A DNA stretch of 64,000 nt from Oscillospiraceae bacterium (GTDB lineage Bacteria; Bacillota; Clostridia; Oscillospirales; Ruminococcaceae). Below are positions 831 through 26,805 of this stretch, piece after piece. Location of the stretch: contig JAZQUO010000060.1 of the NCBI GenBank assembly GCA_045631325.1, forward strand, positions 10,274-74,273. The letters are read 5' to 3'. How positions within the stretch are numbered: the stretch's first letter is position 1; each line of letters starts with the position of its first letter. The notes below the pieces were generated by a model. It was not told where the DNA came from and ran no database searches. It was given only the letters and a program-made list of their open reading frames with translations. The translations under genes were made by a program, and so were the position numbers.

Positions 831-1706
831 ATGAACAGAACCCGGAATGCTATGAAAAAAATACTCATGCTTTTCGTTGCTTTTGTTTTTGTTTTTTGCG
901 GTGCAACCGAAGCTTTTGCGGATGAACCGGAAGCAGGCACAGGAATGCTGCTTGAAGAAAATAAACAGGAAGGTTCATTTATCGGCGGAAGCGGAAATTC
1001 AGGGGTGAATTTTTCCGCCCTTGAAAAACAGATAACTGTTGCGATCGGACTGAACGAGCACGATTATACGAAGGAAAGCTGGAGCAATCTGCAGAAGGCA
1101 CTCAACGCAGGAGTCAAGATAATCGGCAGCAAGGAAAGCACTGACCAGAAAACAGTCGATGAAGCGGTTTTTGATCTTGAAACCGCGATAGCTTCTCTTA
1201 CAAGAGTTGATTATTCGAAACTTGAAAAAGCAATAAACCAGGTTTACAACAAATCCGGAGAAAACGCAGAGTTTCATGAAATCTGGAACAAAATCAATTC
1301 CGCGGTTGAAAGAGCAAAATCTCTTCTTTTAAGCGGCGATCAGGCTGCGGCGGATAATGCGGCGGCGGAAATCGAAGCGCTTCTTGCTGAACTTGAGGGC
1401 TTGGGTGTAATCAGCGGCGAACCGGAAATCGTCATCAAGGAAGTTGAAGTAACGGTTCCGCCCACCGACGATTTCTGCAACATTCCGGGACATAAAGTCT
1501 GGCCGGTTCTTTTCGCAATAAGCGCGGTTATAAACGCTGCACTTGCTGTGGTGATTTACTACATATTCTCGAAGATGAAAAATACCGCGGACGAAATTCC
1601 GCTTATAAAATATGACATCGACGATGATTTCGGTGATGAGATCGAGGACTTCGCTGTCGAAACCGAAGACGAAGCGGAAGAAACTTCCGGCAAAGACGAA
1701 GATTGA
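831..1706 (+). CDS. secreted, C-terminally membrane-anchored protein with FIVAR-like helical repeats and acidic tail
   Basis: GGAGG lies 10 nt upstream of the ATG at 831; the ATG at 804 has no RBS. The signal peptide is MNRTRNAMKKILMLFVAFVFVFCGATEAFA. Helical segments repeat (DYTKESWSNLQKALNAG.. and DYSKLEKAINQV..). A C-terminal TM (VWPVLFAISAVINAALAVVIYYIF) is followed by a D/E-rich tail. Confidence 0.6.
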   Translation: MNRTRNAMKKILMLFVAFVFVFCGATEAFADEPEAGTGMLLEENKQEGSFIGGSGNSGVNFSALEKQITVAIGLNEHDYTKESWSNLQKALNAGVKIIGSKESTDQKTVDEAVFDLETAIASLTRVDYSKLEKAINQVYNKSGENAEFHEIWNKINSAVERAKSLLLSGDQAAADNAAAEIEALLAELEGLGVISGEPEIVIKEVEVTVPPTDDFCNIPGHKVWPVLFAISAVINAALAVVIYYIFSKMKNTADEIPLIKYDIDDDFGDEIEDFAVETEDEAEETSGKDED

Positions 1707-1749
1707 TCCAAAGGGGAAAAGAAAGATTTTTCTGAGGTGATTGCTTAAT

Positions 1750-3225: not shown

Positions 3226-3229
3226 GCCG

Positions 3230-4507
3230 ATGGATTTAAATAAATTCAGGCCCAAGGCGAACAAAGAGCCGGAAAAGCTTGAAACTTATATGATTGCGGC
3301 GGATAACCCTGTCGGTCATTCCCAGCTTCGTCCGATTTTCAAACGAAAAAGGACAAGGGAAGTTCTCACGAGGGAACAGGTTGCCGCAATCAAGAAAGGA
3401 CGCAAGCTTCTTTGGAAGGAAATGAAATCCCAGGGAATGCGGAGGATCGATTTTGAGGTCACCGCAACCAATATGGGGCTTTATTTCGACAGAAACCGGT
3501 TTTTATGGCCGTTTTTCCTTTGGCTTATCCGCGACAACACCGTCCTTAAAGTTCTTGTAACAACGGCGGTTATCACAACGGCGGTCACCGTTTCGGTTCC
3601 GGTTATCGAATATCTTCAGGAATTTGTTGACCGATATATCGAACAGATCGTCGAAAGAATCGTTCAGGAAGAAGTTGAAAAGGAAGTCGACCGTTTCACA
3701 ATAAGCCTTTCGGACGAAATGCTCAATTCCGGTTTCAGTTTAAGCGAGGATTTCACCTTTGAAAACGCGACAACAAACCTTGTTGCGGCTTCGGTCGAAG
3801 GCGTTCCCTGTATTTCGATACGCGATATTCCCCTTGACGTAAACGATTACGAAGGAAGATATCCGGACGAATCGTTCTTCGCATACACCTTCTATTGCCG
3901 TTACGAAAGCACCGTTTCCGAAGCCATTGACTATACCTGGTCGGTAAATATCACAAGGGAAGACGAGGTTGTTGTCGAAGACCCGGAAACCCTTGAACAG
4001 AAACATTATTTTGTTTCCGACGCGATCTGGGTTATGGTTTTTGAGGACAACAAAATGATGTTCTTCGCAAAAGTCGGCGAGGACGGCGAAATTGAAGCGC
4101 TTCCGGCGCAGGATATCACCGACCGCGGTTATGAAAACGGACCGCTTATCGAACATTCAAAATTGCCGGAAGAACAGTATGAAATCATTAAGGAAGGAAA
4201 TTATTTCGACTATTACAGAGTAAAGCCGATGAATTACGTTTCCGAAACGGTTGTTGCAACCGGCCTTATGGAAGGCGTTCTTCCTTTTGATATAAACCTT
4301 CACAACCCGGAAGCTCCTTACGACCCGGAAAACCCCAACGGAATCCATAAATACACCGTTGTAATCTGGCTTGAAGGGGACGACCCGGAATGCACCGACG
4401 CACTCATCGGCGGAAGCATCGGAATGAACTTCAAAATCCAGTTCCTTGACGAAGTCACCGAAGAGGAAGAAGGAGAAGAAGAAAATTCCGGCGAGGAAGG
4501 CGCTTAA
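3230..4507 (+). CDS. membrane protein with cytoplasmic basic N-terminus, internal TM region and extracellular domain sharing the C-terminal motif of the TasA-like paralogs
   Basis: TM region is FLWPFFLWLIRDNTVLKVLVTTAVITTAVTVSVPVI. The C-terminus YTVVIWLEGDDPECTDALIGGSIGMNFKIQF matches LWLEGQDSEC..NIQF (7308 gene) and IWLEGQDIDC..NIEL (13055 gene). A 4-nt gap separates it from the upstream gene. Confidence 0.6.
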   Translation: MDLNKFRPKANKEPEKLETYMIAADNPVGHSQLRPIFKRKRTREVLTREQVAAIKKGRKLLWKEMKSQGMRRIDFEVTATNMGLYFDRNRFLWPFFLWLIRDNTVLKVLVTTAVITTAVTVSVPVIEYLQEFVDRYIEQIVERIVQEEVEKEVDRFTISLSDEMLNSGFSLSEDFTFENATTNLVAASVEGVPCISIRDIPLDVNDYEGRYPDESFFAYTFYCRYESTVSEAIDYTWSVNITREDEVVVEDPETLEQKHYFVSDAIWVMVFEDNKMMFFAKVGEDGEIEALPAQDITDRGYENGPLIEHSKLPEEQYEIIKEGNYFDYYRVKPMNYVSETVVATGLMEGVLPFDINLHNPEAPYDPENPNGIHKYTVVIWLEGDDPECTDALIGGSIGMNFKIQFLDEVTEEEEGEEENSGEEGA

Positions 4508-4860
4508 ATTATAATTTGATGGGATTTAAAAGAAAACCCTCCGGGTTGACTGAAATCCCTCATCCGTCTTTTTCGCGGAAAACCGCGAAAAATCCACCTT
4601 CCCCTCTGGGAAGGCTTGAAGTTTGTATATGCTTTCCACTTTTGCTTTAAGTCGACAAAAGCAAAGGAATGGATTTCATAGAACTCCGGCGGGAGTTTAA
4701 ACACAGCAAAATCTTTTTAAGCTGTTTTTTTAAAAATTGCAGAAGCCGCAAAAATTTTTGCAATTTCAAATTGGGGTAATGAAAAAGCGGATTTTTTAAA
4801 GCAGATGTTTATTTTACGAAAAGAACAGCGGCGAAAAGAAAAAATTTATTTTTGAAAGGA

Positions 4861-7119
4861 ATGAAAAAAGACATGGTAAGTAAATCTCATGCAAAGCGTC
4901 GCCAGGATATTAAGACCAAACTTATGGCCGCAATTGCGATGCTTCTTGTATCTTCCATCATGATGGTATCTTCCACCTATGCATGGTTCACCCTGTCTAC
5001 TGCACCCGAGGTAACCGGTATCTCCACTCAGGTTGGCGCTAACGGTAACCTTGAAATGGCATTGCTTCCTGCAGATGCTATCACCGGTGGCAGCGCAAAA
5101 GACCCTAACTTCGGAATCACTTCCGGTTCCGGCGACAGCGGGCTTGCCGATGACCTCAGAAACAAAACCTGGGGCAACCTTGTTGACGTAAGCAACAACA
5201 CCTTCTACGGTCTGGATAAAATTTCCCTTTATCCTGCCGCGCTTAACGTAACGAGCGGAACTCTTGCAGCATCTATGCTCAGAACCCCCGAATACGGTTC
5301 CGACGGCCGTGTTGCAGGCCTTGCCGCAAATACCGTAACCGGTATTTATAACAACGGAGCAAACGGATTCCCCCAGGACTCCGACGCATGGGGCGTTCGT
5401 GCAGTTGGTGTTTCCTCCGCAATGACTCCCCGTCAGCTTGCATACCGCAACGCAATTTCTGCGGCAAACACTGCAATGTCCACAGCAAAATCCCTTGCAA
5501 GTTCTTCTCTTAACCTTAACGGTTCCACCCTTGCAAACATTGCGGTAACTCATGCAACTAATGATGCTGCACTTCATACTGCAGGGGAAGTTACTTCCCT
5601 TGGAAATATTGTAACAAGCCTTACCGGTACAGCAGAAGGCGTTGACGGTATTATCGAATACATCGAAAGCGCATATAAGAACTATGTTCTTGCATGGGTC
5701 GCTTCCAACGCAAACTCCGAAATCAACGATGAACAGTTCACTCTTGTTCAGGCATGGATCGAAGCAAACGATATTTACACCATCGCAGGCAGCACCACTG
5801 TTGATCTCGGCGCCGGAAATACCGTTACCCTTACTGTTCCGGATGCAGTAAAAACTCCTATTAATGCTCTTGCAACAACCAAAACCAACGTTACTTCCGC
5901 AAGCAATATGCTCAGCAACCTTGCTGGCGATGATTCCGCTGGTTATCCTTGGAGCACCAAGGAAACCGGTAAATATGGCATCGGCGACGTTCTTCACATT
6001 CTTGCAGAAACCAGCGCAATGAAAGTTAACGGAATTGAAGTTTCCAAAGTTACAGACGACGCAAGCGTCAACCAGCTTATGAAAGATGTTTCCGGCGGTA
6101 AAGGCGTTACTGTAACAATGGCAACCGGCGGCGGCGTTTATGCCGATATCGCAGACCATTGCGGCGATTACAAAGCAGCCATCACCATGAACCTTGTTTA
6201 CGGAAACCTTGAATTCGAAGGTTTGTCCGCAAATATGGCAACCGCTTCCACTATTACCCCCAGCTATCTTTCCCGTATGGGCAGCCAGTTCGGCAGCGGC
6301 GACGGCAAGTTTGATGCTCCTTCCGGCGGCGGCGCAGGTTCCGATATGCCTATCACCGAATATTACGGATATGTAATCGACCTTGCTTTCCGTACCAACG
6401 CAGCAGAATCCAACCTTCTTCTCCAGACCGAAGCAGTAAACCGCATTTATGATGAAAACGGAAGCGAGGAAACTCTTGGCCACGGTTCCACCATGACCTT
6501 CACTTCCACCACCCCCGACTTCACCGCAGAACAGCTTGCAGGTCTTATGGAAGCAATCCGCGTTGTATTCTTCGACCCGACCAACAACAACGTTTATGCT
6601 TACGCAAAACTTGATATGGAGCAAGGCAAATATACCGTAACCGGCGGTAACACTATCACTGCAAAACTCTATATCTATGAGACCACTGCAGAAAGCTATA
6701 ATCTTGTTCCGGCAGATACCGCATTGGTTGAAGGCACCGATTATTACACCAAAAACGGAGACGGTTCTTATGTAAAAGCAACCGTAACTCTTCCTGCAAC
6801 TGCACCCGCAGATACTTATTACACCAAGACCGAAGCAAGCGAAAACCTTCTTAACGGAACTGGTGAACAGCAGGTAATCACTGGTCTTAACCAGAATACC
6901 GCAAAAGCTGTTTCCGTTCTTGTATATCTTGACGGTGAAAACATCGAAAACGCAGACGTTGCAGCAACCGCAGCAACTTCCATGACCGGTACCATGAACC
7001 TTCAGTTCGCTTCTTCCGCAAACCTTGTTCCTATGAACTATGCACCCCTTATGAACCAGGGCGGAACCGCAACCAATCCTGACGATCCTAACAAAGAGCA
7101 GGGCGGCGAAAACGGCTGA
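4861..7119 (+). CDS. TasA/camelysin-like secreted protein with SipW-type signal peptide; candidate major fibre subunit
   Basis: N-terminus is KRRQDIKTKLMAAIAMLLVSSIMMVSSTYAWFTLSTAPEVTGISTQVGANGNLEMAL (compare TasA/camelysin GGTYAYFSD...GTLDL). C-terminal VYLDGENIEN...MNLQFASS is shared with the 19321 gene. The composition is Ala/Thr/Gly/Asn-rich. A strong hairpin follows. The start could also be TTG 4852 or ATG 4873. Confidence 0.7.
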   Translation: MKKDMVSKSHAKRRQDIKTKLMAAIAMLLVSSIMMVSSTYAWFTLSTAPEVTGISTQVGANGNLEMALLPADAITGGSAKDPNFGITSGSGDSGLADDLRNKTWGNLVDVSNNTFYGLDKISLYPAALNVTSGTLAASMLRTPEYGSDGRVAGLAANTVTGIYNNGANGFPQDSDAWGVRAVGVSSAMTPRQLAYRNAISAANTAMSTAKSLASSSLNLNGSTLANIAVTHATNDAALHTAGEVTSLGNIVTSLTGTAEGVDGIIEYIESAYKNYVLAWVASNANSEINDEQFTLVQAWIEANDIYTIAGSTTVDLGAGNTVTLTVPDAVKTPINALATTKTNVTSASNMLSNLAGDDSAGYPWSTKETGKYGIGDVLHILAETSAMKVNGIEVSKVTDDASVNQLMKDVSGGKGVTVTMATGGGVYADIADHCGDYKAAITMNLVYGNLEFEGLSANMATASTITPSYLSRMGSQFGSGDGKFDAPSGGGAGSDMPITEYYGYVIDLAFRTNAAESNLLLQTEAVNRIYDENGSEETLGHGSTMTFTSTTPDFTAEQLAGLMEAIRVVFFDPTNNNVYAYAKLDMEQGKYTVTGGNTITAKLYIYETTAESYNLVPADTALVEGTDYYTKNGDGSYVKATVTLPATAPADTYYTKTEASENLLNGTGEQQVITGLNQNTAKAVSVLVYLDGENIENADVAATAATSMTGTMNLQFASSANLVPMNYAPLMNQGGTATNPDDPNKEQGGENG

Positions 7120-7170
7120 TTTTCAAGCTAAGTCTTACATAAGACAAATTTTTTCAAGCACACCCCAAAA

Positions 7171-7210
7171 GGTTCATACCCGCTCCGGAAATCCGGAGCG
7201 GGTATGAACC
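7171..7210 (+). terminator. perfect 18-bp stem-loop after the candidate major subunit gene (partial terminator or mRNA stabiliser)
   Basis: ggttcatacccgctccgg-aaat-ccggagcgggtatgaacc. No clean T-run follows on the plus strand. Confidence 0.6.
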
Positions 7211-7307
7211 GAAAAGCTTGGTTGGCGGCTGCCTTTTGCGGTTTTAAAAAACGGAAAACGCAAAAGGGAACCTTCAACTTGTTGAAGAATTTTTGAAGAA
7301 AGGAGAA

Positions 7308-8414
7308 ATGCTTTTGGGAAAACATAAACACCATAAATTAAACAAGCAGCGAAAGCGAACGATTATATATTCCTATATGCTTTTGATTCTCCTTTCGTTT
7401 CTTGTTACGGCATCCTATACATGGTTCAGCATAAGCCGGACGCCGAAAGTTTCCAACATGAACGTATATATTACGAGCCAACCGGGACTTGAAATGTCGG
7501 TGGATAAAGAAGAATGGCTTTTGCAGCTTGATTTTTGGGAAGCGGTTAACGCAACGACGGAACTTAACCCGGAAAAGGACAACCCTGTTCTGCGTCCGGT
7601 AACCTGGTCTAATGAAAACCAATGTTTCTATGCGGCGGCATACGGAATTGACGGAAGGCTTCTTGCTTTTCCGGATTGGTTACAGCTTTCGGACGACCGG
7701 AACGCGAACAAGCAGAACTTTGAAGGATATTACATAAAGGCGACGTTCTTCATGCGATGCGGACAGAACGCGGAAATTTCTCTTTCGCCGGCGGTTGAAG
7801 TCAACGAAGGGGTTGACGGTTCCGGAACCTATGTCAGGGGAATTCCGGTATGGAATCCGGGATATTATGAGGAAAAAGAGGATGAGGACGGAAACATTAT
7901 GCAGGAACTCGTCGGTTTCGGGCATGAAAACTCCGGCCAGGGTGCGGAAAACGCAATTCGTGTAGGTTTCCTCATAACGACCCTTGAACCGAACGAAGAA
8001 GGGGAATATGTTCCGATTGAGGACGAGGAACCGGTTTTCATGATTTACGAACCGAACTGCGATATCGGTTACGGGGGACTTCGGGAAGAATATATTCCGA
8101 CTCCAAGCATGGACGGAACGGAAAACCTTGTTGACGTCGAACATCTGATTTTGCAGACCGCGACAACATGGACCGAAGCGGACCCCATTGAAAACGGAGT
8201 TGTAATCCATACCCTCGGGGAATTTGTTGAGGAAAAAACGCTTTTCAAGATAAAGGCGGCGCAGATTGTGCAGATCGACCTTTATCTCTGGCTTGAAGGA
8301 CAGGATTCCGAATGCATCAACCGGGGAAGCGAAGCACAGATTCAGGCGAACATTCAGTTTGCAGGAAAGAACGAAACCCAGACAGGTTTTGTACCAATTG
8401 AAGATAATGAATAA
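7308..8414 (+). CDS. TasA/camelysin-like secreted protein with SipW-type signal peptide
   Basis: N-terminus is KQRKRTIIYSYMLLILLSFLVTASYTWFSISRTPKVSNMNV. C-terminus is DLYLWLEGQDSECINRGSEAQIQANIQFAG. The start is ambiguous (TTG 7293, ATG 7308 or TTG 7314; AGGAG at 7301..7305). Confidence 0.65.
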   Translation: MLLGKHKHHKLNKQRKRTIIYSYMLLILLSFLVTASYTWFSISRTPKVSNMNVYITSQPGLEMSVDKEEWLLQLDFWEAVNATTELNPEKDNPVLRPVTWSNENQCFYAAAYGIDGRLLAFPDWLQLSDDRNANKQNFEGYYIKATFFMRCGQNAEISLSPAVEVNEGVDGSGTYVRGIPVWNPGYYEEKEDEDGNIMQELVGFGHENSGQGAENAIRVGFLITTLEPNEEGEYVPIEDEEPVFMIYEPNCDIGYGGLREEYIPTPSMDGTENLVDVEHLILQTATTWTEADPIENGVVIHTLGEFVEEKTLFKIKAAQIVQIDLYLWLEGQDSECINRGSEAQIQANIQFAGKNETQTGFVPIEDNE

Positions 8415-8486: not shown

Positions 8487-9410
8487 ATGAAAAACGAGAA
8501 AGAAAAGATCGCGGCACCTATTGCACAGGAAGGCGAAGGAGAAATTGTCGTCGAAGAAGAAAGCAAAGGCAAAAAAATTCTGAACACAGTCGTTAACGTT
8601 GTTCTTGTAATTGCCATTGCGCTTGCGGCAGTTTGCACCTATGCATCCTATGTTTCAACTTCCGGCAACGGCGTTCCGAACATTTTCGGTATCCGAATCT
8701 TCTCGATTCAGACCGAATCTATGTACCCGACCCTTTTGCCCGGCGACCTTATTTTCGACACCGGCGTTAAAGACCCCGGCGAACTTCGCAGAGATGATAT
8801 CATCACCTATTGGACCGTAATCAACGGCGAGCGTGTTCTCAACACCCATAGAGTTTACGAAATCTATGACGGCGGCGGCTATCTTATCTTCTCCACCAAA
8901 GGTGATAACAACACTTCTGCCGACCCTCTTACGGTTCATGAATCCGAAGTTGTGGGTAAATATTCCTTCCGTGTTCCCGGAGTCGGCAAAGTTTTTGACT
9001 ATCTCCAGACAAGCACCGGCTTCCTTATTGTAATTGTAATTCCGGTTTTCCTTTTCTTCCTTTTCCATCTTGTTCAGTTCTTCAGAGTTCTCTTTGAATA
9101 TCAGAACGTCAAGAACAGAATCAAATTCGAACAGGAACGCGGAAGAACCGAAGACCTTATCGATGCGGAACAGAAACGACAGAGCGAAGAACAGGCCGCC
9201 GCAAGGGCGAAAATTGAAGCTGAACTTCGCGAAAGACTGAAAGCGGAAATTATGGCTTCCATGGCGGCGCAGGCTGCTGCGGCCGCGGCACCGGCGGAAG
9301 AACCCTCTCCTGAAGCTGTTCAGGAAGAGGTTGTTGCCGAAGAAGTTCCGGAAGAACCCGCAGAAGAAACCGCAGAAGAAGAAAAAGCGGAGGAAACAGC
9401 CGAAGTCTGA
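8487..9410 (+). CDS. SipW-type (archaeal/ER-type) signal peptidase I with long C-terminal tail
   Basis: Catalytic-type blocks are IQTESMYPTLLPGDLI, NTHRVYEI and STKGDNN. There is an N-terminal TM, a second TM (FLIVIVIPVFLFFLFHLVQFF), then a tail of about 110 aa that is coiled-coil and A/E/P-rich. Confidence 0.8.
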   Translation: MKNEKEKIAAPIAQEGEGEIVVEEESKGKKILNTVVNVVLVIAIALAAVCTYASYVSTSGNGVPNIFGIRIFSIQTESMYPTLLPGDLIFDTGVKDPGELRRDDIITYWTVINGERVLNTHRVYEIYDGGGYLIFSTKGDNNTSADPLTVHESEVVGKYSFRVPGVGKVFDYLQTSTGFLIVIVIPVFLFFLFHLVQFFRVLFEYQNVKNRIKFEQERGRTEDLIDAEQKRQSEEQAAARAKIEAELRERLKAEIMASMAAQAAAAAAPAEEPSPEAVQEEVVAEEVPEEPAEETAEEEKAEETAEV

Positions 9411-9438: not shown

Positions 9439-11007
9439 ATGAACAATTTCTTTAACTATTTCAAAGAGGATATCGGGCAGGTTTTTGATGCCTTTGTTGA
9501 AATATTGAGCGCAATTTTCAACTTCATCAACTATCTGTTCAACTTCCCGATGAGAATGAACATAATCAAGGAGCACAGCGCCGATTTCAGCACCACCGAC
9601 TGGGTGATGCTGCTTATTGCAAACATAATGATAATCGCCCTTTGCTGTCTTATTATCTATTTCATCGGAAAACTTATCCGCAACATTTTCTTCGGCGGAA
9701 TTTCGAAGAAAGAATATGAAAGAATGGCCGGCCAGGTCCGCACCCTTCAAAGGGATCTTATGCGTTCAAACTATGAAAAGGATAAGATCCTTGCAATGAC
9801 CATGGGTAACCCGGAAATTCCTCCGGAAGAGGAAGAAAAAACCGAAGAAAACGGGGAAGAAGGGGAAGAATTTGCTGTTTCTTCCAACAGAAACACCTTC
9901 GATTCTCCTTGCGTCGATCCTTCGGACAGCCGTTTCTTCCGTCTTACCAGCGTTGATAACTATTACAAAACCGAATATATAAAACCTGAATACGACAACG
10001 AGATCACTCTTGAGGAAATTTGCGAAAGATTCAGAAAATTCGCCGCTTCCCAGCTTAAACTTTATTACGATCTCGACATGATGAGATACTTCCTTGCTTC
10101 GATGGGAACTTCGAGAATCATAATTCTCCAGGGTATTTCCGGTACCGGTAAAACCTCGCTCCCTTATGCGTTCGGTAAATTTGTTCAGAAAGATACAACC
10201 GTTGTTTCCGTCCAGCCTTCCTGGCGTGAACGTACCGAGCTTTACGGTTATTTCAACGAATTTACAAAACGCTATGCCGAAACGGAATTCCTTCAGGCAA
10301 TTTATGAATGCAACTATTACCGCGACCCGCATATTGTAATCCTTGACGAGATGAACATCGCCCGTGTTGAGTATTATTTTGCGGAAATGCTTTCAATTCT
10401 CGAAATGCCCCTTCAGGAAGAATGGAAAGTTGACGTTGTAACAGCTGTATGGGACAACGACCCCTGCCTTATCGAAGGCGGTAAGATCCAGATCACCAAC
10501 AACGTCTGGATCGTCGGCACCATCAACAACGACGACTCGACTTTCGCCGTCGCGGATAAAGTTTACGACCGTGCAATCCCGATAGACCTTGACAGCAGGG
10601 CTGATCCCTTTGAATGTGAGATAACCGATCCGGTTTATATTTCCACCGACCACCTCAACGAACTTTTCGACGAAGCGAAGGCTGCGCATCCTGTTTCCCA
10701 GGAAATTATGGATAAGCTTGAACTTGTTAATACATATCTTATAAAGAACTTCCGTCTTGCATTCGGTAACCGAATCATGAAACAGATAGGCGACTTTGTT
10801 CCCTGCTTCATCGGCTGCGGCGGTACGGAAATTCAGGCAATCGACTTTATTGTTGCAAAAAAAGTTCTCCGTAAGTTTGAATCCCTCAGCCTTGGTTTCA
10901 TGAAGGATGAACTTACAAAGTTCAGCGCATACCTTGACAAGGTTTTCGGCAAAAACCAGATGAAAATCTGCAAGGAATATATTGAACAGCTTAAAAAGAA
11001 CAACTGA
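9439..11007 (+). CDS. membrane-anchored McrB-family AAA+ NTPase
   Basis: TM is WVMLLIANIMIIALCCLIIYFIG. Walker A is GISGTGKTS. VSVQPSWRERTELYGYF resembles McrB VQFHPSYSYEDF. Walker B block is IVILDEMNIARVEYYFAEMLSILE. WIVGTINNDDSTFAVADKVYDRA resembles McrB IGTMNTADRS. Confidence 0.72.
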   Translation: MNNFFNYFKEDIGQVFDAFVEILSAIFNFINYLFNFPMRMNIIKEHSADFSTTDWVMLLIANIMIIALCCLIIYFIGKLIRNIFFGGISKKEYERMAGQVRTLQRDLMRSNYEKDKILAMTMGNPEIPPEEEEKTEENGEEGEEFAVSSNRNTFDSPCVDPSDSRFFRLTSVDNYYKTEYIKPEYDNEITLEEICERFRKFAASQLKLYYDLDMMRYFLASMGTSRIIILQGISGTGKTSLPYAFGKFVQKDTTVVSVQPSWRERTELYGYFNEFTKRYAETEFLQAIYECNYYRDPHIVILDEMNIARVEYYFAEMLSILEMPLQEEWKVDVVTAVWDNDPCLIEGGKIQITNNVWIVGTINNDDSTFAVADKVYDRAIPIDLDSRADPFECEITDPVYISTDHLNELFDEAKAAHPVSQEIMDKLELVNTYLIKNFRLAFGNRIMKQIGDFVPCFIGCGGTEIQAIDFIVAKKVLRKFESLSLGFMKDELTKFSAYLDKVFGKNQMKICKEYIEQLKKNN

Positions 11008-11034
11008 TAATATTCTTTATGAAAGGAGCCGCTT

Positions 11035-12987
11035 ATGGCTGCATCCACGAAAAAGAATTCCGGAAAAACCGGAGCAAAAAAGAAGGATTCAATTATTGAT
11101 CCTCTTTACGAAAAATACACTAAAAGTGTCATAAGAGCTCTTGGAAGCACGGAATTTTACGAATTTTTCATGGACTCGGTTTCAAGAGCGGAAAATCAGT
11201 TCCAGTTTTCCAACAGGAGAATGGAAAAAACCGTTGACCTTAACTGGGTCGATGCAATTGAGGACACTTTGCCGGCAATTCAGAACATTATTTCAAGCCC
11301 CAGAAACATAATCCGTGAAGACGAGCTTATTGTCAACGTTGCAAATGCGAAAAAGGCAGGTTCGGACGTTGTACGCCACCTTGCCCAGCACGCAAGCCTT
11401 GTTGAAAAATACGATTTTGAAACCGGCGAGGTCCGCCCGAGCAAACTTATGCAGAAATACCGCGAGGATACGATCGGTCTTTATGAAAACCGCCTTGTTT
11501 TCACCGCCCTTGAAACTGCCTTTGAGTTTGTAAAAATCCGTCACGATGCTCTCTTTTCTGCGATGAGCGACGAGTTCGGCGCAAAACTCAAAGTTGATTC
11601 CACAATGGAAACTTCGACGGAGATGGTGCATCTTGATATGTTCATGCATATCAGGGAAATTGACGGCGCCATTGAAACCGACGACAAGAACGCCGACGTT
11701 TTCGGAAGAATTTCCAAGATGTACAGGGTTCTTAGTATTCTTATGAACAGCCAGTTTGCCCAGCAGATGGAAAGACTTCCGAGGGTAAAGGGTACTCTTA
11801 CAAAGACAAACGTTCTTAAAAAGAACCCTTATTACAGAAAAGTTATGGCGCTTCTTGAATATCTCCGAAGCTATGACGATATCGGTTACACGATCCGCGT
11901 TGTTGAACAGAACCCTGAGATAAACGAAACCATGGAAAGGGATATTTATCACAATATTCTTTTCAACTATCTTATCCTTAAAGGATATCTTGAGGACGAG
12001 AGGGAACGCAGAATCCCCGCGCCCACAAAAGAAAGAAAACGCACTCTTAAACCGAAATTCATCAAAGAAATTATTGAGGAATTTACGGAAGATTACGACC
12101 TTCCGGATATTGAGATCCGCAAGGTCCTTATAGAAGAACTCACCAAAGAACAGCTTATGCTTGAAGAGGAAGCGGAACGCAGAAGACTTGTTGAAGAACA
12201 GGAACAGCGTAAACGCGAAGAAGAGGAAAGACTTCGTCTTGAAGCGGAAGCGGAAAGCGAAAGAATCCGCAAGGAAGAAGAGGCCGAAAAACAGCGTCTT
12301 TGGATCGAGCAGATGGAAAGAGAAGCGGAGGACAGACGCAGAAGCAAGATTTTCCAGGAGGAACTTACTTTCTTCATAGAAAAACTTCCGGAGCGGCTTG
12401 AGGCAAGGGAAGAAGCCATTGCCCGCCGTCTTGAGGAAATGAAGGCATTTGAGGAAGCGCAGAGAAAGATCGAAGAAGAAAAACAGCGCAAACTCGAGGC
12501 CGAAGAAAAACTCCGCAGAGAAAAAGAGGAAGAGGAACAGCGCAGCCAGAAGATTCTTGTTGAAAAACAGGCGGAGGAAGAGCGCAGAACCGAAATCTTT
12601 AAAAATGAATTCGATAAATTTGCCGCAAACCTTGAAAACCGCAAAGAGGCAAGGGAAACCGCCGAAGCGAAAAGAATCAGGGATAAAGAAGAATTCCTTG
12701 AAGCGGCAAGAATCCTTGAAGAAGCGGAACAGGTTAAAATCGACGCTGAAATCAAGGAAAGAGAGGAAAGAGAAAAACTTCGCCTTGAAAAAGAGCAGAA
12801 GCGCGAGCAGGACGAAAAAGACACCGAACTTACAAAACCTTACCTCGAAGAAGTTGTTGTTTTCATGGATTCCCTTCCGAAGCGAATTGCTTTGCGCGAA
12901 GCGGAAAACAGAAAGTATCTTGCGGAAAAAGAACGGCTTGAAATTGAACGCCAGCGCCGCCTTGCCGCAAGGGCAGCAAGAAGATGA
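11035..12987 (+). CDS. McrC/DUF2357-like N-terminal domain fused to long E/R/K coiled coil with three 82-aa repeats; no recognisable nuclease motif
   Basis: LYENRLVFTALE resembles the ENR block of McrC-type partners. The last ~270 aa are E/R/K-rich, and repeat units start exactly 246 nt apart at 12349, 12595 and 12841. GGAG RBS; 28 nt after the AAA+ gene. Confidence 0.45.
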   Translation: MAASTKKNSGKTGAKKKDSIIDPLYEKYTKSVIRALGSTEFYEFFMDSVSRAENQFQFSNRRMEKTVDLNWVDAIEDTLPAIQNIISSPRNIIREDELIVNVANAKKAGSDVVRHLAQHASLVEKYDFETGEVRPSKLMQKYREDTIGLYENRLVFTALETAFEFVKIRHDALFSAMSDEFGAKLKVDSTMETSTEMVHLDMFMHIREIDGAIETDDKNADVFGRISKMYRVLSILMNSQFAQQMERLPRVKGTLTKTNVLKKNPYYRKVMALLEYLRSYDDIGYTIRVVEQNPEINETMERDIYHNILFNYLILKGYLEDERERRIPAPTKERKRTLKPKFIKEIIEEFTEDYDLPDIEIRKVLIEELTKEQLMLEEEAERRRLVEEQEQRKREEEERLRLEAEAESERIRKEEEAEKQRLWIEQMEREAEDRRRSKIFQEELTFFIEKLPERLEAREEAIARRLEEMKAFEEAQRKIEEEKQRKLEAEEKLRREKEEEEQRSQKILVEKQAEEERRTEIFKNEFDKFAANLENRKEARETAEAKRIRDKEEFLEAARILEEAEQVKIDAEIKEREEREKLRLEKEQKREQDEKDTELTKPYLEEVVVFMDSLPKRIALREAENRKYLAEKERLEIERQRRLAARAARR

Positions 12988-13054
12988 GTTTTTGAGCATA
13001 TTGCCAAAAACCGCATGAGCATCAGATAAAACCGTTACGGAAGGGGGAATTGCC

Positions 13055-14371
13055 TTGAATAAAATTCATATTAAACTCATCGCAATGGCCCTTGCGCTCA
13101 CCCTTTCCGTTTCCGTGCTCATAATGTCTTCCTACGCATGGATGGTCCTTTCATCAAACCCCGCCGCAACGGGAATTCAGGTTATAATCGGCGGCGGCAA
13201 CACGATTCTTATTGCGCCGAATATGGAACACGAATATAACGGAAAAACATATAACCTTCCCGGGAATTTTTCCGACAAGATGAATTTCAGCGGATACGGA
13301 ATGGAAGAATCCTACGGATATCTTTCCGAAGTTGCGGGACTTACCCCGGTTTCAACTTCCAACGGAAGGGAATGGTTTGTTTCCGGTAACAAAGTTGATA
13401 TGTTTTATGAAAACGCCAATCTTCCGAAATACGTTGAAGACGAAAACGGCGGACAGATTCCGAACAAAAAAGTCGGCGAAGGAAACTATATTTATCTTGA
13501 TTTCTGGGTCGTTTCCCCAAGCGGAAATTACGATTTAAGAATTTCCACCGGCGATGGAACTTCCGACGGCGGAAGCTTTGTAATAGACCTTCCGGAACCG
13601 AAAATTGAAACCGAAGGAGAGATTACGACAGGAACTCTTCATCAGGAAGACGGAAAAAGCGCCGCAGCTTCCGTAAGAATCGGCTTTCTTGCAAATCCTA
13701 TTTTGCTTGAAGAAGAAATGCAGGCTTATGTAAACAGCGTTTACAATGATGACCGTTTTAAATCTCTTCGGGGATTTTACAGGGAACCAGACAGCGGAAG
13801 TTTTGAAATTGATTCCGAAAAGTTCACCATTTATGAGCCTAACGGGGATTTCCACCCCCTTGACGAAGAACTTGACGGAAGCTATGTTCAGACAAAACCT
13901 TTGATGCTTGAAAACGGTGCAATCAAAGAAAACACGGATATCTGGGACCATCTTACGGTTCAGCTTAAAAGCGATTGGGAAGAAAGCGGACTTATCGGAC
14001 AGAAATTCAATGCCGCGGTTATTCAATATGGCAAAGATTGGACGGACAAAACTCCGGCGGAACTTTCTGCGCTTTTTTACGGAAGATATCTTGGCGGGCA
14101 GTTTTCGACTTACGTTAAAAAAGGCGATTTTATAACAAAAACATCGACACTTGAAGCTGCCGTAAATGCGGCAAACGGTGCCGCGGATATTTCCGGATTG
14201 GGACAATCCGGCGCAACGGAAGACGTTGTTATTATTGAATTGGAACAGAACGTTCCCCAAAGAATCCGTATGTTCATCTGGCTTGAAGGACAGGATATAG
14301 ACTGCCCCGCAAGCGCAAATTCCGCAAGATTTGCGGTGAACATCGAACTTGCCGGCGGAACAAAAGAATAG
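13055..14371 (+). CDS. TasA/camelysin-like secreted protein with SipW-type signal peptide
   Basis: N-terminus is KLIAMALALTLSVSVLIMSSYAWMVLSSNPAATGIQV. C-terminus is RMFIWLEGQDIDCPASANSARFAVNIELAG. TTG start with a GGGGGA RBS. Confidence 0.65.
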   Translation: MNKIHIKLIAMALALTLSVSVLIMSSYAWMVLSSNPAATGIQVIIGGGNTILIAPNMEHEYNGKTYNLPGNFSDKMNFSGYGMEESYGYLSEVAGLTPVSTSNGREWFVSGNKVDMFYENANLPKYVEDENGGQIPNKKVGEGNYIYLDFWVVSPSGNYDLRISTGDGTSDGGSFVIDLPEPKIETEGEITTGTLHQEDGKSAAASVRIGFLANPILLEEEMQAYVNSVYNDDRFKSLRGFYREPDSGSFEIDSEKFTIYEPNGDFHPLDEELDGSYVQTKPLMLENGAIKENTDIWDHLTVQLKSDWEESGLIGQKFNAAVIQYGKDWTDKTPAELSALFYGRYLGGQFSTYVKKGDFITKTSTLEAAVNAANGAADISGLGQSGATEDVVIIELEQNVPQRIRMFIWLEGQDIDCPASANSARFAVNIELAGGTKE

Positions 14372-14376
14372 ATATT

Positions 14377-15135
14377 ATGAATGAAAATAAGTTTGAAAAA
14401 GGCGATTACCGTCTTCACCATTGGATAAGCACCCTTGTTACGGTGCTTCTTGTGGTGGCTGTGGTGTTTTGTCTTTATGCAGTTATACAGGTTTTAAGCA
14501 ACGGATATGTAAACATAGGCGGGTTCATGATGTTCCGGATTGTTACCGGAAGTATGGAACCGACAATGCCGATAGGAACCTTGCTTATTACAAGAGAAGT
14601 TGATATTGAAACCGTTATGGTTGACGATATAATTTGTTTCAGGACACAGGTCCAGGAAATCTGGGGGAAAATTGTTACTCACAGAGTTGTTGAAATAATG
14701 GAAACGGCGGGCGGAGTTCTTTTGGAAACAAAGGGCGACGCAAACCTTGCTTCGGACGTTTTTTACGTTGACAGCAGCAATTTTGTGGGAAAAGTTGTCT
14801 GGCATTCGGGAGATGACAATATTTTGGCTGACTTATTATCATTGTTCACAAGCAAAATCGGATTTTTGGGCTGTATTGCCCTTCCGAGCATTCTTCTTGC
14901 CGCTTTTATACTTAAAAGCAGCGTCGGAAGCATTCAGCAGGAGCTGAACGCCATTCTTGAAATGGAAAAACTCAAAAACGAAACGGTTTCGGAAGAAACA
15001 GAACCGGTTGTTTCCGAAGAAGAATACAACGAGATGTACGAACGAATTAAAGCAGAACTTATTGAGGAGCTGACGCATGTTGAAGAAGTTCAATTGGGAT
15101 CCGGAGAAGATTCCGAAGATTCTGAAACTGAATAA
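14377..15135 (+). CDS. second SipW-type signal peptidase I
   Basis: Blocks are FRIVTGSMEPTMPIGTLLI, VTHRVVEI and ETKGDANLASD. It has N- and C-terminal TM helices and an acidic tail. Confidence 0.8.
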   Translation: MNENKFEKGDYRLHHWISTLVTVLLVVAVVFCLYAVIQVLSNGYVNIGGFMMFRIVTGSMEPTMPIGTLLITREVDIETVMVDDIICFRTQVQEIWGKIVTHRVVEIMETAGGVLLETKGDANLASDVFYVDSSNFVGKVVWHSGDDNILADLLSLFTSKIGFLGCIALPSILLAAFILKSSVGSIQQELNAILEMEKLKNETVSEETEPVVSEEEYNEMYERIKAELIEELTHVEEVQLGSGEDSEDSETE

Positions 15136-17194
15136 TAATTCTGCGGAAAGTTCCGTTTCGCCGGAACTTATTAAGGCGCAGAAAAATATCCTGATGAAGG
15201 CTGCCCTTGCTTTTCTTACAATTGTTCTTACCATTGTAATTCTTTTTGCGATGACTTCGGCATGGTACACGAACATTGTTCACACAAGCGGACTTGTTTT
15301 TGAGGTTGAATCCTGGGGATTTGACGGAGAAATCACGGTGGAACAGGGACCGATTCTTGCAGGCCCCGGTGACAGCGGAATTATCGGACTTTCGATGGAC
15401 GGAACAGCAGGAGAAATTCTTGACGTAAGTATCGGCGTTTCTAAAGAAGCTATGCTGAATTCCATTGGAATAAGCGGACAGGAATCGACGGCGGACACAG
15501 ATGCCATGAAGAAAAGATTTTTCTTCTATGTTGACAAACCGGGAATCAAAAACGGCGAGCAGGTTGACAGATTCTATATAAATAACACAGAAGATTATAC
15601 TTATACCGTTTTCAGCGAAGGTTCCATCAGAATTTCTGAAGATTTTTCGAACGTTCCGGAACTTAAATGGCAATGGGTTTATGACGTTCTCGGATATTAC
15701 GTAAGAGCGAATGATGACGGAAACGGAACATTTATTGTGCAGGAATATCTTCGTCCGATTGAATATGATTTTGACAGTGTGACTTTCACCGAAGTTGCGA
15801 CAGTTGTTGAAGCGGACGGAGAGGAAATAACAATTCCTAAAAAAGTTATTGAAACCATTGATGGAGTTCCGACGGAAGTTTTTCTTGAGGAATTTTCCAA
15901 AAACGACGGTTATGCCGGTGAAATAATTGTTATTCCCGAAGCAGGAGAAACTGCGACTGACACTGTTGAGACTGCCGACGGAACATATTACAAAGTTGCG
16001 GAAGGAATTTACGCATATCTTTGCGATTATCAGGAAATTGAGGACGCAACTGTGTTTGATACCGTTCTCGGGAAAATGGCGGGAAATAAAAGTGAAATGA
16101 CGCAGGATGAACTCGAAGCATTGCGGTTTCCGGCGACAGTAAATGTTTCTGTTCAGAACAGAACAGAAGCGGAAAGCGTTGAGGTGACAACGCTTAATAC
16201 TGATATTATTTCCGGAAACAGCGGAAAAGTTATTAAACTTGCAAACGACGTTGCTTTAACGGAATCTCTCGTAATTCCGGAAAACGCGAATGTTGAAATA
16301 GATCTTAACGGAAAATCAATCAGTTTTTCCGGAATTGAAGCCAAGGGAAATGCGATTGAAGTTCCGGAGGGAAGTTCTCTTCTTATGCTCAACGGCAAGG
16401 TTGAGAATGAATATTCCGCAAAAAAAACGGGAAGAGGAATTCTTGCTTCCGGTGCGGAAGTCACACTCAGCGGAGTTGAAATCAACGGTTTTGATTACGG
16501 ACTTCGTGTAACCGATAATGCCGCAGGAAATAAAACGGATTCTGTGATTCGTCTTTATAACTGCAAAACAGACGCCGGAACCTGCGGAGTTTACATCCTT
16601 GGAAATGGAGAAGCTTCGGAACAGAAAACCCAGCTTATTATTGAAAAATCCGAACTTAAAGCAGAGGGATTTGTAATCTGCGGAGGCGGAAACCCGGACA
16701 GCAGGGGAACCGATATCCGGATTATAGGAAGCACTCTTGAATCTATCGGAGAGTATAGCGTTGGTATTTATCAGCCGCAGAAAGACGGCGAAACCGTTAT
16801 TTATAACAGTACGATTACAGCCCGCACGGGAATTGCCCTTAAAGCAGGTGTTGTCGAAATTATCGATTCGCATATTTACGGAAAAGGTCCTTATGGAGAC
16901 CCCGGATATGCGGTAAGCGGTTCGAAAGATACGGGCGACGCGGTTTATATTGAAGCAAACTACGGACATCCAATCAGCCTTATCATAAAAGGGGAATCCG
17001 AACTTAAAGCAAGTGATCCCAGGAGCATGGCTCTTCGTGTTTATGAAGAAGATGCACCGAACGTAACAGTTGAAATCATAAGCGGAATTTTCAGTTCGGA
17101 AGTTTTGGAAAACTGGGTTGCGGACGGTTCCGTTTTGAGCAGCGACAAAAAAACTGTAAGCGTTTCTGCATCCGCGCAGGAAGAAACCGAATAA
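15077..17194 (+). CDS. SipW-type signal peptide protein with C-terminal right-handed beta-helix-like repeats (candidate adhesin or enzyme subunit)
   Basis: N-terminus is AALAFLTIVLTIVILFAMTSAWYTNIVHTSGLVFEV. The C-terminal ~330 aa has beta-helix-type repeats (NGKSISFSG.., GILASGAEVTLSGVEINGFDYGLRV.., IRIIGSTLES.., IYNSTITARTGIAL..). GAGGAG RBS. It overlaps the upstream gene by 59 nt. Confidence 0.6.
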   Translation: MLKKFNWDPEKIPKILKLNNNSAESSVSPELIKAQKNILMKAALAFLTIVLTIVILFAMTSAWYTNIVHTSGLVFEVESWGFDGEITVEQGPILAGPGDSGIIGLSMDGTAGEILDVSIGVSKEAMLNSIGISGQESTADTDAMKKRFFFYVDKPGIKNGEQVDRFYINNTEDYTYTVFSEGSIRISEDFSNVPELKWQWVYDVLGYYVRANDDGNGTFIVQEYLRPIEYDFDSVTFTEVATVVEADGEEITIPKKVIETIDGVPTEVFLEEFSKNDGYAGEIIVIPEAGETATDTVETADGTYYKVAEGIYAYLCDYQEIEDATVFDTVLGKMAGNKSEMTQDELEALRFPATVNVSVQNRTEAESVEVTTLNTDIISGNSGKVIKLANDVALTESLVIPENANVEIDLNGKSISFSGIEAKGNAIEVPEGSSLLMLNGKVENEYSAKKTGRGILASGAEVTLSGVEINGFDYGLRVTDNAAGNKTDSVIRLYNCKTDAGTCGVYILGNGEASEQKTQLIIEKSELKAEGFVICGGGNPDSRGTDIRIIGSTLESIGEYSVGIYQPQKDGETVIYNSTITARTGIALKAGVVEIIDSHIYGKGPYGDPGYAVSGSKDTGDAVYIEANYGHPISLIIKGESELKASDPRSMALRVYEEDAPNVTVEIISGIFSSEVLENWVADGSVLSSDKKTVSVSASAQEETE

Positions 17195-17230
17195 ATATTT
17201 TTAAATTTTTTGAAAGGGGGAGCGCCGGTT

Positions 17231-17842
17231 TTGGAACAGAAAAAAAACAGAAGTTTCGTCTGGCATTTTGCCGCTTTGGCGCTTCTTCTTTGCATTGCGT
17301 TTTTTGTGATTTCCGTATCTCCCGCTTTTGCGAGATACCGCGAGGGATTTGAAAATAAAATTATATTTGAAGTCCGGGAACCGGAACATATTTGCTTCGG
17401 AAGTTTTAATGAAGAGAAATTTGTTCCATTTACGGACAGCGGGGATATCAAATGGAAAATTTCTGGGGATATGGCGACGATTACCCTTACTGTTGCAAAC
17501 GGAACTTCCGGAACGGATTTTTTTTCGAAAGACCAGAAAATAAATATCCAGCTTGCGGCAGGACCGGAATTTAAGGATAAGAATGTTACATTGAGTTTTC
17601 CGGAAGGAAGTTCTCAAAAAAATATTTTGGGTACAGCATCGGAAATTAAGGACGATTCAACTTTTGATAAATCTTACGGAACGGGAGTTCTGTTCAGCTT
17701 TACGGAAAACGAAGAGGAATTTTCTTATATTTTAAAGGGCGGAAAATTTTCTTATTTTACGTTCATGATATCTTTTGATACAAGCGGATTAAATGAAACA
17801 AGCCTTCTTCAGCCGCATGTTGTGGCGGAAGTTATTCAATAA
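17231..17842 (+). CDS. small secreted or anchored protein of the fibre locus (ARY-motif class)
   Basis: N-terminus is FAALALLLCIAFFVISVSPAFARYREGFENKIIFEVREPE. GGGGGAG RBS. The start is TTG 17231 or TTG 17210. Confidence 0.5.
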   Translation: MEQKKNRSFVWHFAALALLLCIAFFVISVSPAFARYREGFENKIIFEVREPEHICFGSFNEEKFVPFTDSGDIKWKISGDMATITLTVANGTSGTDFFSKDQKINIQLAAGPEFKDKNVTLSFPEGSSQKNILGTASEIKDDSTFDKSYGTGVLFSFTENEEEFSYILKGGKFSYFTFMISFDTSGLNETSLLQPHVVAEVIQ

Positions 17843-17878: not shown

Positions 17879-19312
17879 TTGAAAAACAACAGAATAAAAG
17901 CATGCGTTCTCCTTTCGGCAGCTCTTTTTGCCGGGACTCTCGGAATTTCTGTCGGGGAGACCCAGGCAAGATATAACAACAGGATTTTTTGCAGTACGGT
18001 TCTTGAAATTCCGGAACCGGAAATTGAAAGCGAAGTTCTTTTTAAAAACGGCGAAACGCCGGTTACGGTTTATCTTGGAAAAGCCGAAGAAGGAAAAACT
18101 TTTTCGATTCCCCTTAAATCTTCCGGAGCGGGAACGAAAGAAAAAATAAGCTGGAATATTAAATCCGAGGGAACAGGAACCGAGGATGTTGAGGTGGAAT
18201 TCATAACCGGAGAAAAAGTTCTTGTTTCCGGGGAAGAAATCGAAATCGGAAACGAAACCGAAACGGCGGTTGAAATGAAAATAATTCCTCCTTCCGGCGA
18301 ACACGGCGAAATTACGACAACAGTTGAAGTTGCGGTAGGAGAAGAACTTTCCGGCAAATTTAAAGTTGTTTTTTCGGAAGCAACCGTTTCCGGTGAAGTT
18401 TCCGGAGAATCCGGAACAACCGATATTCCTCCGGAAGGCGGAAATATGGAAACTCCTCCGGCTGAAGAACCGGAAAACGGCGGTTCGGAAAATTCTTCCG
18501 GAAACACCGAAGGAAGCGCACCCACCGTTAACGCAGGAACAAATGCGGAGATAAAAACAATTCCGTATTTTGATTCGGATGGAAAACTTCCGGTTGCGAT
18601 GAATCTTCCGGGCGGAATCCGAACAGTTAAAATCGGAATCAGCGAAGAAGGAAGCTTTAAAAATCTTCCGGCGGGAACAAAAATAAGTCTTGATAACGGA
18701 GAAAGTTACTATATGGTTTCCGAAGGGGCGGATGCAGAATTCCCGGTTTCGGAATTTTACGTGCTTGAATCCGGATATGCGCTTTTGCTTGATTTTGAAA
18801 AAGCGGAAATTGATACCGCAAAAGAACTTGTTATTGCGATTGAAACAACATCAACATCGGGAGCAACGACAAATTATAGCGTTTCATCAACTCCCGTTGA
18901 TTTTGAAAGCGGAAAAATGAAAATTGCTTCTTCTGTCGAGCAGCTTGTTGACGCGGAGGAAAGCGGTAAACCCTGTATTCTTTCTCAAGGCGATTGGATT
19001 GAAACCGAGTTTATGAAAGAATGGATCAGCAACGGAATAACTTACAGCTGTGACGTGATGATTCTTTCCGAGTTTATTGATGGGAAACCTGTTTTTTACG
19101 ATACGGGAGAGGATTTTGACAAAGGAACTTACACCGTTAACGAAGAGGAAGGTTCCTGCGTTCGTATTTTAAAGCCGGGGAAATTTGTTCCCGCGGCGGG
19201 AACTTACGAAATGATTATTCGTTGGGAATTTGAAGGGATTTGTTTTTATAACGAACGAACCACCTTTTTTATAAATTATCTTTCCGACATATATTCAACC
19301 TTTGAAAGTTAG
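17879..19312 (+). CDS. secreted protein of the fibre locus (ARY-motif class) with Ig-like or acidic regions
   Basis: N-terminus is ACVLLSAALFAGTLGISVGETQARYNNRIFCSTVLEIPEPE, which shares ARY..IF..(V/L)E(V/I)xEPE with the 17231 protein. GGAAAGGAG RBS. Confidence 0.55.
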   Translation: MKNNRIKACVLLSAALFAGTLGISVGETQARYNNRIFCSTVLEIPEPEIESEVLFKNGETPVTVYLGKAEEGKTFSIPLKSSGAGTKEKISWNIKSEGTGTEDVEVEFITGEKVLVSGEEIEIGNETETAVEMKIIPPSGEHGEITTTVEVAVGEELSGKFKVVFSEATVSGEVSGESGTTDIPPEGGNMETPPAEEPENGGSENSSGNTEGSAPTVNAGTNAEIKTIPYFDSDGKLPVAMNLPGGIRTVKIGISEEGSFKNLPAGTKISLDNGESYYMVSEGADAEFPVSEFYVLESGYALLLDFEKAEIDTAKELVIAIETTSTSGATTNYSVSSTPVDFESGKMKIASSVEQLVDAEESGKPCILSQGDWIETEFMKEWISNGITYSCDVMILSEFIDGKPVFYDTGEDFDKGTYTVNEEEGSCVRILKPGKFVPAAGTYEMIIRWEFEGICFYNERTTFFINYLSDIYSTFES

Positions 19313-26699: not shown

Positions 26700-26805
26700 A
26701 ACAATGAATATTTATGATGGAAAGTGGGGTATTGCCTCACTCGGTTTCGACCGGTTTTGTATCATAAATAAAAAGTGCGAAAGCACGTAAATCATAGGAG
26801 GAGAT

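Follow-up and report, generated by a model that had tools for sequence, protein, structure and literature searches.

What would a pair of genes related to the McrBC restriction system do in the middle of an operon for the export of surface proteins? The question is raised by a 64,000-nucleotide stretch of DNA from an Oscillospiraceae bacterium (GenBank assembly GCA_045631325.1, contig JAZQUO010000060.1, positions 10,274 to 74,273; the whole stretch is called the window below). In it, a McrB-like GTPase of 522 amino acids (aa; 9439-11007, + strand) is directly followed by a McrC-like partner of 650 aa (11035-12987, + strand), and the two are flanked by genes for SipW-type signal peptidases. An initial annotation made from the sequence had placed both open reading frames (ORFs) at these positions and on this strand, and every sequence block that it quoted is present. 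It had left the choice between a motor or chaperone for surface fibres and a new defence module to further analysis. We find that the pair belongs to a named, uncharacterised class, CoCoPALM, and that, judged by its sequence, it derives from the McrBC restriction system. Between the two proposed roles the evidence favours the motor or chaperone. In its fuller form, the reading towards which we lean, with modest confidence, is that the pair forms an NTP-driven unit that is tethered to SipW at the cytoplasmic side of the membrane and serves the processing or assembly of surface proteins dependent on SipW.

A CoCoPALM-type GTPase and its McrC-like partner

Bell, Makarova, Wolf and Koonin (eLife 2024, PMC11090510) defined a branch of McrB-like GTPases in which an NxD motif is 'strictly conserved' and in most cases precedes a glutamate or another aspartate. 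CoCoPALM systems, as described in that paper, comprise a GTPase with an FtsB-like transmembrane (TM) helix and coiled coil, McrC homologs that 'usually' contain a coiled coil, and linked signal peptidases. The window locus shares with them an NxD GTPase that carries a TM helix and a coiled coil at its N-terminus, a DUF2357 McrC homolog with a coiled coil, the linkage to signal peptidases and the occurrence in Bacillota; we see no difference in kind, and the locus is a member. Its architecture is therefore not new, and the initial annotation's description of the pair as unexplained has to be withdrawn to the extent that both the architecture and the signal-peptidase link had already been named (PMC11090510).

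The GTPase is best described as a predicted membrane-held AAA+ NTPase of the McrB clade, in the NxD branch, with its catalytic motifs intact. Hydropathy scanning places a TM helix at residues 55-77 (9601-9669) and a second hydrophobic or amphipathic segment at residues 15-36 (9481-9546). The helix is followed by a stretch resembling a coiled coil (residues 88-120) and by an acidic linker (residues 125-144), which together span 9700-9870, an arrangement that had been described correctly from the outset. Homologous representatives of 450-540 aa have one or two N-terminal TM segments. Since basic residues come after the TM helix, a cytoplasmic location is predicted for the AAA+ domain. This domain contains the Walker A motif GISGTGKT (residues 232-239; 10132-10155), the block VSVQPSWRERTELYGYF at residues 256-272, the Walker B motif IVILDE (residues 299-304; 10333-10350), the sensor-1 or McrB signature NNDD (residues 363-366; 10525-10536), which is an NxD followed by a second acidic residue and stands within the intact sensor motif GTINNDDSTF, and KVYDRA at residues 374-379; all of these features are encoded on the + strand.

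Conservation of these motifs across the family is nearly complete at the catalytic positions. Residues G232, G235, G237, K238 and T239 of Walker A and L302 and D303 of Walker B are invariant in the alignment (A2), and E304 is nearly so. Where the sensor motif was located among representatives clustered at 50% identity, it reads GT(A/I)NxD(D/E)STF; its asparagine and the aspartate at +2 are essentially invariant, and the +3 position is usually D or E and in a few sequences G, Q or A. The family itself is large, with 7990 clusters (50% identity) at E<=1e-3 and 745 at E<=1e-30.

By direct scoring, the relationship to McrB appears real but weak. The PDB matches of the GTPase are three McrB sequences only (E 2e-4 to 5e-4, residues 220-384), so that McrB, the family proposed in the initial annotation, is the sole PDB family matched; the NCBIfam McrB model gives E 8e-5 and 21.5 bits against a cut-off of 637, and Pfam AAA_5 falls just short of its cut-off (20.5 bits, cut-off 22). 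Placement in the McrB clade is taken from the published phylogeny (PMC11090510).

The partner gene begins after a gap of 27 nt, with a Shine-Dalgarno sequence, AAAGGAG, 7 nt before its ATG. Its product has neither a signal peptide nor a TM helix and is for this reason predicted to be cytoplasmic. The full-length protein has no match in Pfam, NCBIfam, PADLOC, PHROGs or PDB. When the first 373 aa are searched alone, they match Pfam DUF2357 (28.1 bits, gathering threshold 23.3, E 1.4e-6) over residues 39-173 (11149-11553, + strand), a segment that includes H115 and the YEN triplet at 150-152; the block around this triplet, residues 149-160, reads LYENRLVFTALE. According to Bell et al., DUF2357 is the N-terminal domain with which McrC engages hexamers of McrB (PMC11090510). 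It is also matched by eight of 16 close partner homologs, and many such homologs already bear this name in precomputed annotation. The conserved core of the partner comprises the N-terminal ~360 residues. Aligning the N-terminal regions of 41-77 diverse sequences, down to 19-34% identity, revealed invariant residues at W71, H115, P135, Y150, E151, N152, T258, N259 and L273.

Beyond this core lies a coiled-coil tail rich in E, K and R (residues 374-650; 12154-12984, + strand), delimited by composition and a motif scan. In its 277 aa, E, K and R make up 54.5% and glycine is absent, and with the DUF2357 match this upholds the earlier description of a McrC/DUF2357-like partner with a coiled-coil tail. 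The length of the tail varies by species, from absent (partners of 362-394 aa) to ~400 aa where the partner is a separate protein. Within the window tail, the motif [FY]xxExxxFxxxLxx[RK]xxxRE occurs in three copies (12352-12411, 12598-12657 and 12841-12900) spaced ~82 aa apart; a search of distant homologs found the motif restricted to the close Oscillospiraceae clade, and the copies may be docking sites or the repeat unit of the tail.

No nuclease was detected in the partner by motif, family or fold, the negative result for fold being that of a moderate model. Pfam, NCBIfam and PADLOC hold no nuclease family that matches the partner, and there is no conserved D...(D/E)xK or acidic-lysine triad after residue 174 in the 41-77 diverse partner sequences. 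The AlphaFold model (alignment A6; pLDDT 67.9, pTM 0.49) is a helical bundle with long beta-hairpins, and a Foldseek search with this moderate model against the PDB returned no nuclease (best E 0.24, TM <=0.13). An earlier model from a shallow alignment (pLDDT 49) was not used. Profile searches of the PDB with two partner alignments (A1 and A3) returned coiled-coil noise or nothing. The absence of a nuclease proposed in the initial annotation is in agreement with all of these searches, and the partner appears to keep the McrC N-terminal domain, with the coiled coil in place of the nuclease.

Comparison with Escherichia coli McrBC illustrates both the kinship and the divergence. The two systems have in common the AAA+ clade, the order of the genes (the NTPase first and the DUF2357-type partner second), Walker A and B motifs and an Asn/Asp signature. 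The window GTPase differs in carrying a TM anchor in place of the DNA-binding N-terminal domain, and it and its family have the signature NxD(D/E) where McrBC has NxxD. Its partner has no detected PD-(D/E)xK motif and no similarity to McrC by hhalign, and the genomic context is one of protein export, in contrast to the restriction context of McrBC.

Conservation of the pair and its link to SipW

Two genes for SipW-type (archaeal/ER-type) signal peptidases flank the pair, in accord with the initial placement of the pair inside a SipW operon. The first (8487-9410, + strand, 307 aa) scores 91.9 bits on the NCBIfam model sigpep_I_arch, for which the cut-off is 51.85 bits, and has a charged tail of ~100 aa after its C-terminal TM helix. 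The second (14377-15135, + strand, 252 aa, with an acidic C-terminal tail) scores 78.3 bits and is paralogous to the first (E about 1e-21 to 1e-20).

When one genome per GTDB species was scanned, at least 589 matches were confirmed, and the best 80 of these (43-87% identity) were taken as the locus set. Nearly all are from Clostridia (Oscillospiraceae, Ruminococcus, Lachnospiraceae and Christensenellaceae), with a few metagenome-assembled genome bins labelled otherwise, and the set includes cultured strains. The partner adjoins the GTPase in 78 of the 80 loci, and the two exceptions stop at a contig edge. A SipW homolog is likewise present in 78, and the homologs of the partner, of SipW and of the upstream gene at 3230-4507 are co-oriented with the GTPase. 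At 75% identity, the whole 14-gene operon is syntenic. PADLOC gave no match among ten genes scanned around the pair. The distribution indicates that the pair is not an inserted defence island and that it is co-inherited with SipW and its presumed substrates across Clostridia. The initial annotation had likewise argued against such an island, and the survey check set in advance, which gave the 78 of 80 loci with SipW, together with the PADLOC result on the neighbours, bears it out.

Codon usage had been part of that argument. A direct test supports host-like usage, with relative synonymous codon usage (RSCU) of the two genes correlating with that of the other operon genes at 0.85 and 0.91 and GC contents of 0.43-0.45. 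The scarcity of in-phase TTA, CTA and TCA codons between 11293 and 12987, which had been offered as evidence of the same bias, is true, with a single such codon at 11293 itself; it follows from the richness of the coiled-coil coding in GAA, AAG and AGA and does not serve as independent proof. The same coding accounts for a spurious 568-aa antisense ORF at 11293-12999.

A physical tie between the partner and SipW is suggested by gene fusions. In five Ruminococcus genomes, the McrC N-terminal domain, coiled coil and SipW are joined in a single ORF of 985-998 aa (L041:7353-10307, L047:9828-12824, L049:11787-14765, L061:11595-14564 and L066:11709-14681), L061 being R. flavefaciens UBA2900 and L066 the cultured R. 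flavefaciens MC2020. The order in these proteins is McrC N-terminal domain, E/K/R coiled coil, TM helix, a complete S26 peptidase with the GSMEP serine motif, TM helix and charged tail, and the peptidase part scores 89.7-92.2 bits on sigpep_I_arch in the two that were scanned (L066 and L041). In sister Ruminococcus genomes, the partner and SipW are encoded separately, with gaps of a few to some tens of nt. As a Rosetta-stone case, the fusion argues for a physical tie of the partner tail to SipW. The linked SipW proteins carry long charged tails beyond their final TM helix, with a median of 75 aa and a length of 40 aa or more in 64 of 82. These tails are mostly short where the partner has no coiled coil (median 26 aa, against 83 aa otherwise), a difference that is suggestive but confounded by phylogeny.

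Variant GTPases from metagenomes extend the range of membrane anchors. In this large set of NxD McrB-like proteins (representatives P0274-P0336), 3-5 N-terminal TM helices replace the single one, and the polytopic TM domain matches no Pfam family. Among 80 metagenome loci sampled (L085-L164), 60 encode a partner of the McrC N-terminal type next to the GTPase and 43 a SipW homolog beside it. The SipW single-ORF fusions, the polytopic GTPases and the optional nature of the partner coiled coil are additions to the class that are unstated in the text of PMC11090510.

This pattern of conservation bears on two alternatives. One is that the pair is a decayed, non-functional remnant of McrBC, left without its nuclease and kept only as a passenger of the operon. 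The loss of the nuclease domain and the weak scores against curated McrB models would fit such decay, but we judge it extremely unlikely, given that Walker A, Walker B and NxD are kept across the 50%-identity family representatives, that full-length proteins are found at 43-97% identity across families of Clostridia, that nine partner residues are invariant across sequences only 19-34% identical, and that the gene order is conserved with no frequent frameshifts seen in the 80 loci.

The other alternative is a membrane-associated defence or conflict system, of CoCoNuT/McrBC descent and now joined to a surface-structure operon, where it might sense phage at the fibre and act through an effector that was not recognised. 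The AAA+ domain of the GTPase does match a candidate defence model, PADLOC PDC-M26A, with E 1.2e-40, and effector swapping is common in systems of this kind. The sister clades, the CoCoNuTs and canonical McrBC, are defence systems or are predicted to be such (PMC11090510). CoCoNuT systems (CnuB/CnuC and others) further resemble the pair in having an NxD McrB GTPase, coiled coils and McrC homologs that often lack an active nuclease (PMC11090510). Their coiled coil, however, is fused to a soluble GTPase, whereas the window GTPase is membrane-anchored, and no nuclease, HEPN domain or other effector was found in the pair or the ten scanned neighbours. The likeness to PDC-M26 is similarly confined to the AAA+ domain, as neither the partner nor the ten neighbours gave a PADLOC match. 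Linkage to SipW in 78 of 80 loci and synteny of the full operon across Oscillospiraceae-type relatives also speak against defence, as do a sequence identity that roughly follows taxonomy, unlike that of patchy defence islands, and a codon usage that fits the operon. Fusion to a housekeeping-type peptidase argues for biogenesis. Taken with these observations, a role in defence seems improbable, though clearly less so than decay.

Possible roles of the pair

In McrBC, the McrC N-terminal domain (DUF2357) engages and activates the McrB ring (PMC11090510). In the reading that we favour, an NTP-driven unit tethered to SipW, the NTPase ring and the McrC-like adaptor would together make up a module that is driven by nucleotides and sits at the membrane on its cytoplasmic side. 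The coiled coil of the partner would dock this module on SipW, probably through the long charged cytoplasmic tail of the peptidase. Hydrolysis of NTP would then be coupled to the processing, membrane release or ordered assembly of large signal-anchored surface proteins, and the module would be part of a machine for the biogenesis of surface structures and not one for the restriction of nucleic acids.

Known systems provide partial parallels for such an arrangement. The tapA-sipW-tasA operon of Bacillus subtilis and the sipW-bsaA operon of Clostridium perfringens similarly encode SipW among secreted, polymer-forming substrates, but they have no NTPase; secretion of BsaC depends on type IV pilus proteins (PMC11580942). 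The presumed substrates in the window differ from those of tapA-sipW-tasA in that they match neither TasA nor any Pfam, NCBIfam or PDB entry by sequence, whether searched as single proteins or, for the 3230-4507 family, as a profile of 28 sequences against Pfam and PDB. Type IV pilus and type II secretion systems with PilB or GspE are a functional analogy only. In them a hexameric cytoplasmic NTPase at the membrane acts together with a dedicated peptidase for signal-anchored fibre subunits, but the NTPase folds are unrelated (the AAA+ McrB clade versus the PilB/VirB11 family), as are the peptidases (S26 SipW versus aspartic PilD), and the window system has no PilC-like platform protein.

Several observations weigh against the favoured reading. 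Fibres of the Bacillus TasA type assemble extracellularly by donor-strand exchange, with no cytoplasmic NTPase, so that a motor is not obviously required, and the neighbours of the pair are, from their sequences, not demonstrably TasA-like. The moderate model of the partner (pLDDT 67.9) matches neither McrC nor any other PDB entry, and hhalign of a partner alignment (A3) against E. coli McrC gave nothing (probability 0.1). The coiled coil is dispensable in several lineages, those with partners of 362-394 aa, and the SipW tether is therefore not the whole story. Partner-tail and SipW-tail lengths, a comparison confounded by phylogeny, show no significant correlation overall (rho 0.15, p 0.28). 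Families that are enriched in defence islands (PDC-M26A and the CoCoNuTs) are among the closest kin of the GTPase. The literature contains no experiment on any CoCoPALM member; the defining paper treats the class in one paragraph, calls the peptidases 'likely pilus assembly factors' and defers the analysis of the class (PMC11090510). Beyond that 2023/2024 paper, our literature search found no CoCoPALM follow-up and nothing on PDC-M26 or on a link between SipW and McrB, and the sole co-mention of SipW and McrB was in an E. coli strain genotype.

A more mechanical version of the favoured reading is possible and, to our minds, doubtful. Here a restriction-derived AAA+ ring, anchored in the membrane and tethered (in Ruminococcus, fused) to SipW through the McrC-like adaptor, would mechanically couple cleavage to the extraction of very large signal-anchored subunits or to their ordered polymerisation. 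If true, CoCoPALM would be an NTP-powered machine of a kind not characterised before, which builds surface polymers of Gram-positive bacteria, and its ring would be a motor for fibre assembly with no relation to the PilB/type IV, chaperone-usher and sortase routes.

The main rival reading is that the pair serves regulation. As a switch, the pair would be a nucleotide-state checkpoint that gates the activity or placement of SipW and performs no mechanical work on the substrates, for example through placement at the septum by an FtsB-like element or through a response to cyclic di-GMP (c-di-GMP). The fusion to SipW is as compatible with direct control of the peptidase as with a motor. The McrC N-terminal domain is known to activate the McrB GTPase, as would suit a switch, and the layout of TM helix and coiled coil at the N-terminus of the GTPase has been related to FtsB by Bell et al., a call made with HHpred (PMC11090510). 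At the head of the locus stands a gene for a protein with HD_5 (HD-GYP-type) and EAL domains (1741-3225, + strand; Pfam HD_5 E 5.6e-12, EAL E 7.7e-7), which probably acts in c-di-GMP turnover; it is kept in this position in Oscillospiraceae and in several Lachnospiraceae-type loci, and its conservation in many relatives hints at c-di-GMP control of the operon. No direct link between the pair and c-di-GMP appears in the data, however, and McrB-family proteins are established as AAA+ ring translocases, not as classical switch GTPases. The homology to FtsB was not confirmed either, as Pfam hmmscan of ten GTPase N-termini detected no FtsB/DivIC homology and gave sub-threshold TM and coiled-coil noise, with a best FtsL match of E 0.03 in one of them. 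On balance a purely regulatory switch is rather unlikely, if more plausible to us than defence.

Presumed substrates, other neighbours and wider meaning

The proteins that SipW might process are encoded on both sides of the pair. Upstream, three SipW-substrate-like proteins, recognised from their translations and paralogy, occupy a + strand block at 3230-8414 (3230-4507, 4852-7119 and 7293-8414), each with an N-terminal signal anchor and a common C-terminal motif, 'WLEG.D..C ... QF'. Downstream, further substrate-like translations at 13055-14371, 15077-17194, 17210-17842, 17879-19312 and 19321-23916 (all + strand) are interleaved with the second SipW gene and form a block that is syntenic in Oscillospiraceae relatives; those at 13055-14371 and 19321-23916 are paralogous to the upstream genes. 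An aromatic 'YAWF'-type motif is found at the N-terminal signal anchor of the substrate-like proteins, which we take to resemble the signal cognate to SipW. The initial annotation spoke of a fibre operon with TasA-like products. Its view of these neighbours as candidate SipW substrates is consistent with such features; the TasA-like label, to which no TasA, Pfam or PDB match corresponds, has to be kept as a conjecture.

Of the substrate-like genes in the locus, the one at 3230-4507 is conserved most widely, with a homolog in 66 of the 80 loci. Conservation is centred on its extracellular region, which carries a 'WLEGxDPxC' motif, and the N-terminal ~140 aa (a cytoplasmic extension and the TM helix) are poorly conserved. 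The cytoplasmic extension was considered as a possible link between fibre and motor and was rejected, since it is unconserved and most homologs are 237-330 aa long.

The operon is followed by an ORF (26806-33129) for a protein of 2107 aa that has a signal peptide, repeats rich in Cys close to the C-terminus and, at the C-terminus itself, a TM anchor. Two relatives (L008 and L018) encode a homolog upstream of the locus, and the protein may be a giant adhesin of the cell surface linked to the system. The window also contains long antisense ORFs of 553 to 2055 aa on the - strand (1603-3264, 4846-6624, 11293-12999, 21538-23436 and 26737-32904). Their translations are of low complexity, rich in F, C, N and K, and mirror the + strand genes; they look like by-products of the avoidance of in-frame TTA, CTA and TCA codons on the + strand and not like genes.

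The system is widespread in Clostridia of the rumen and gut, with at least 589 matches among species-representative genomes. Its carriers include cellulolytic Ruminococcus, for which surface adhesion matters in the colonisation of fibre. Cultured carriers are available in R. flavefaciens MC2020, Ruminococcus sp. FC2018, Lachnospiraceae bacterium 10-1 and Eubacterium ruminantium FB3002, and the SipW fusions supply a concrete prediction of a protein-protein interaction. If the role proposed here is true, a McrBC module would have been repurposed from attack on DNA to the building of surface structures, and the locus would provide a clear case of a defence-type motor recruited for biogenesis of the cell envelope.

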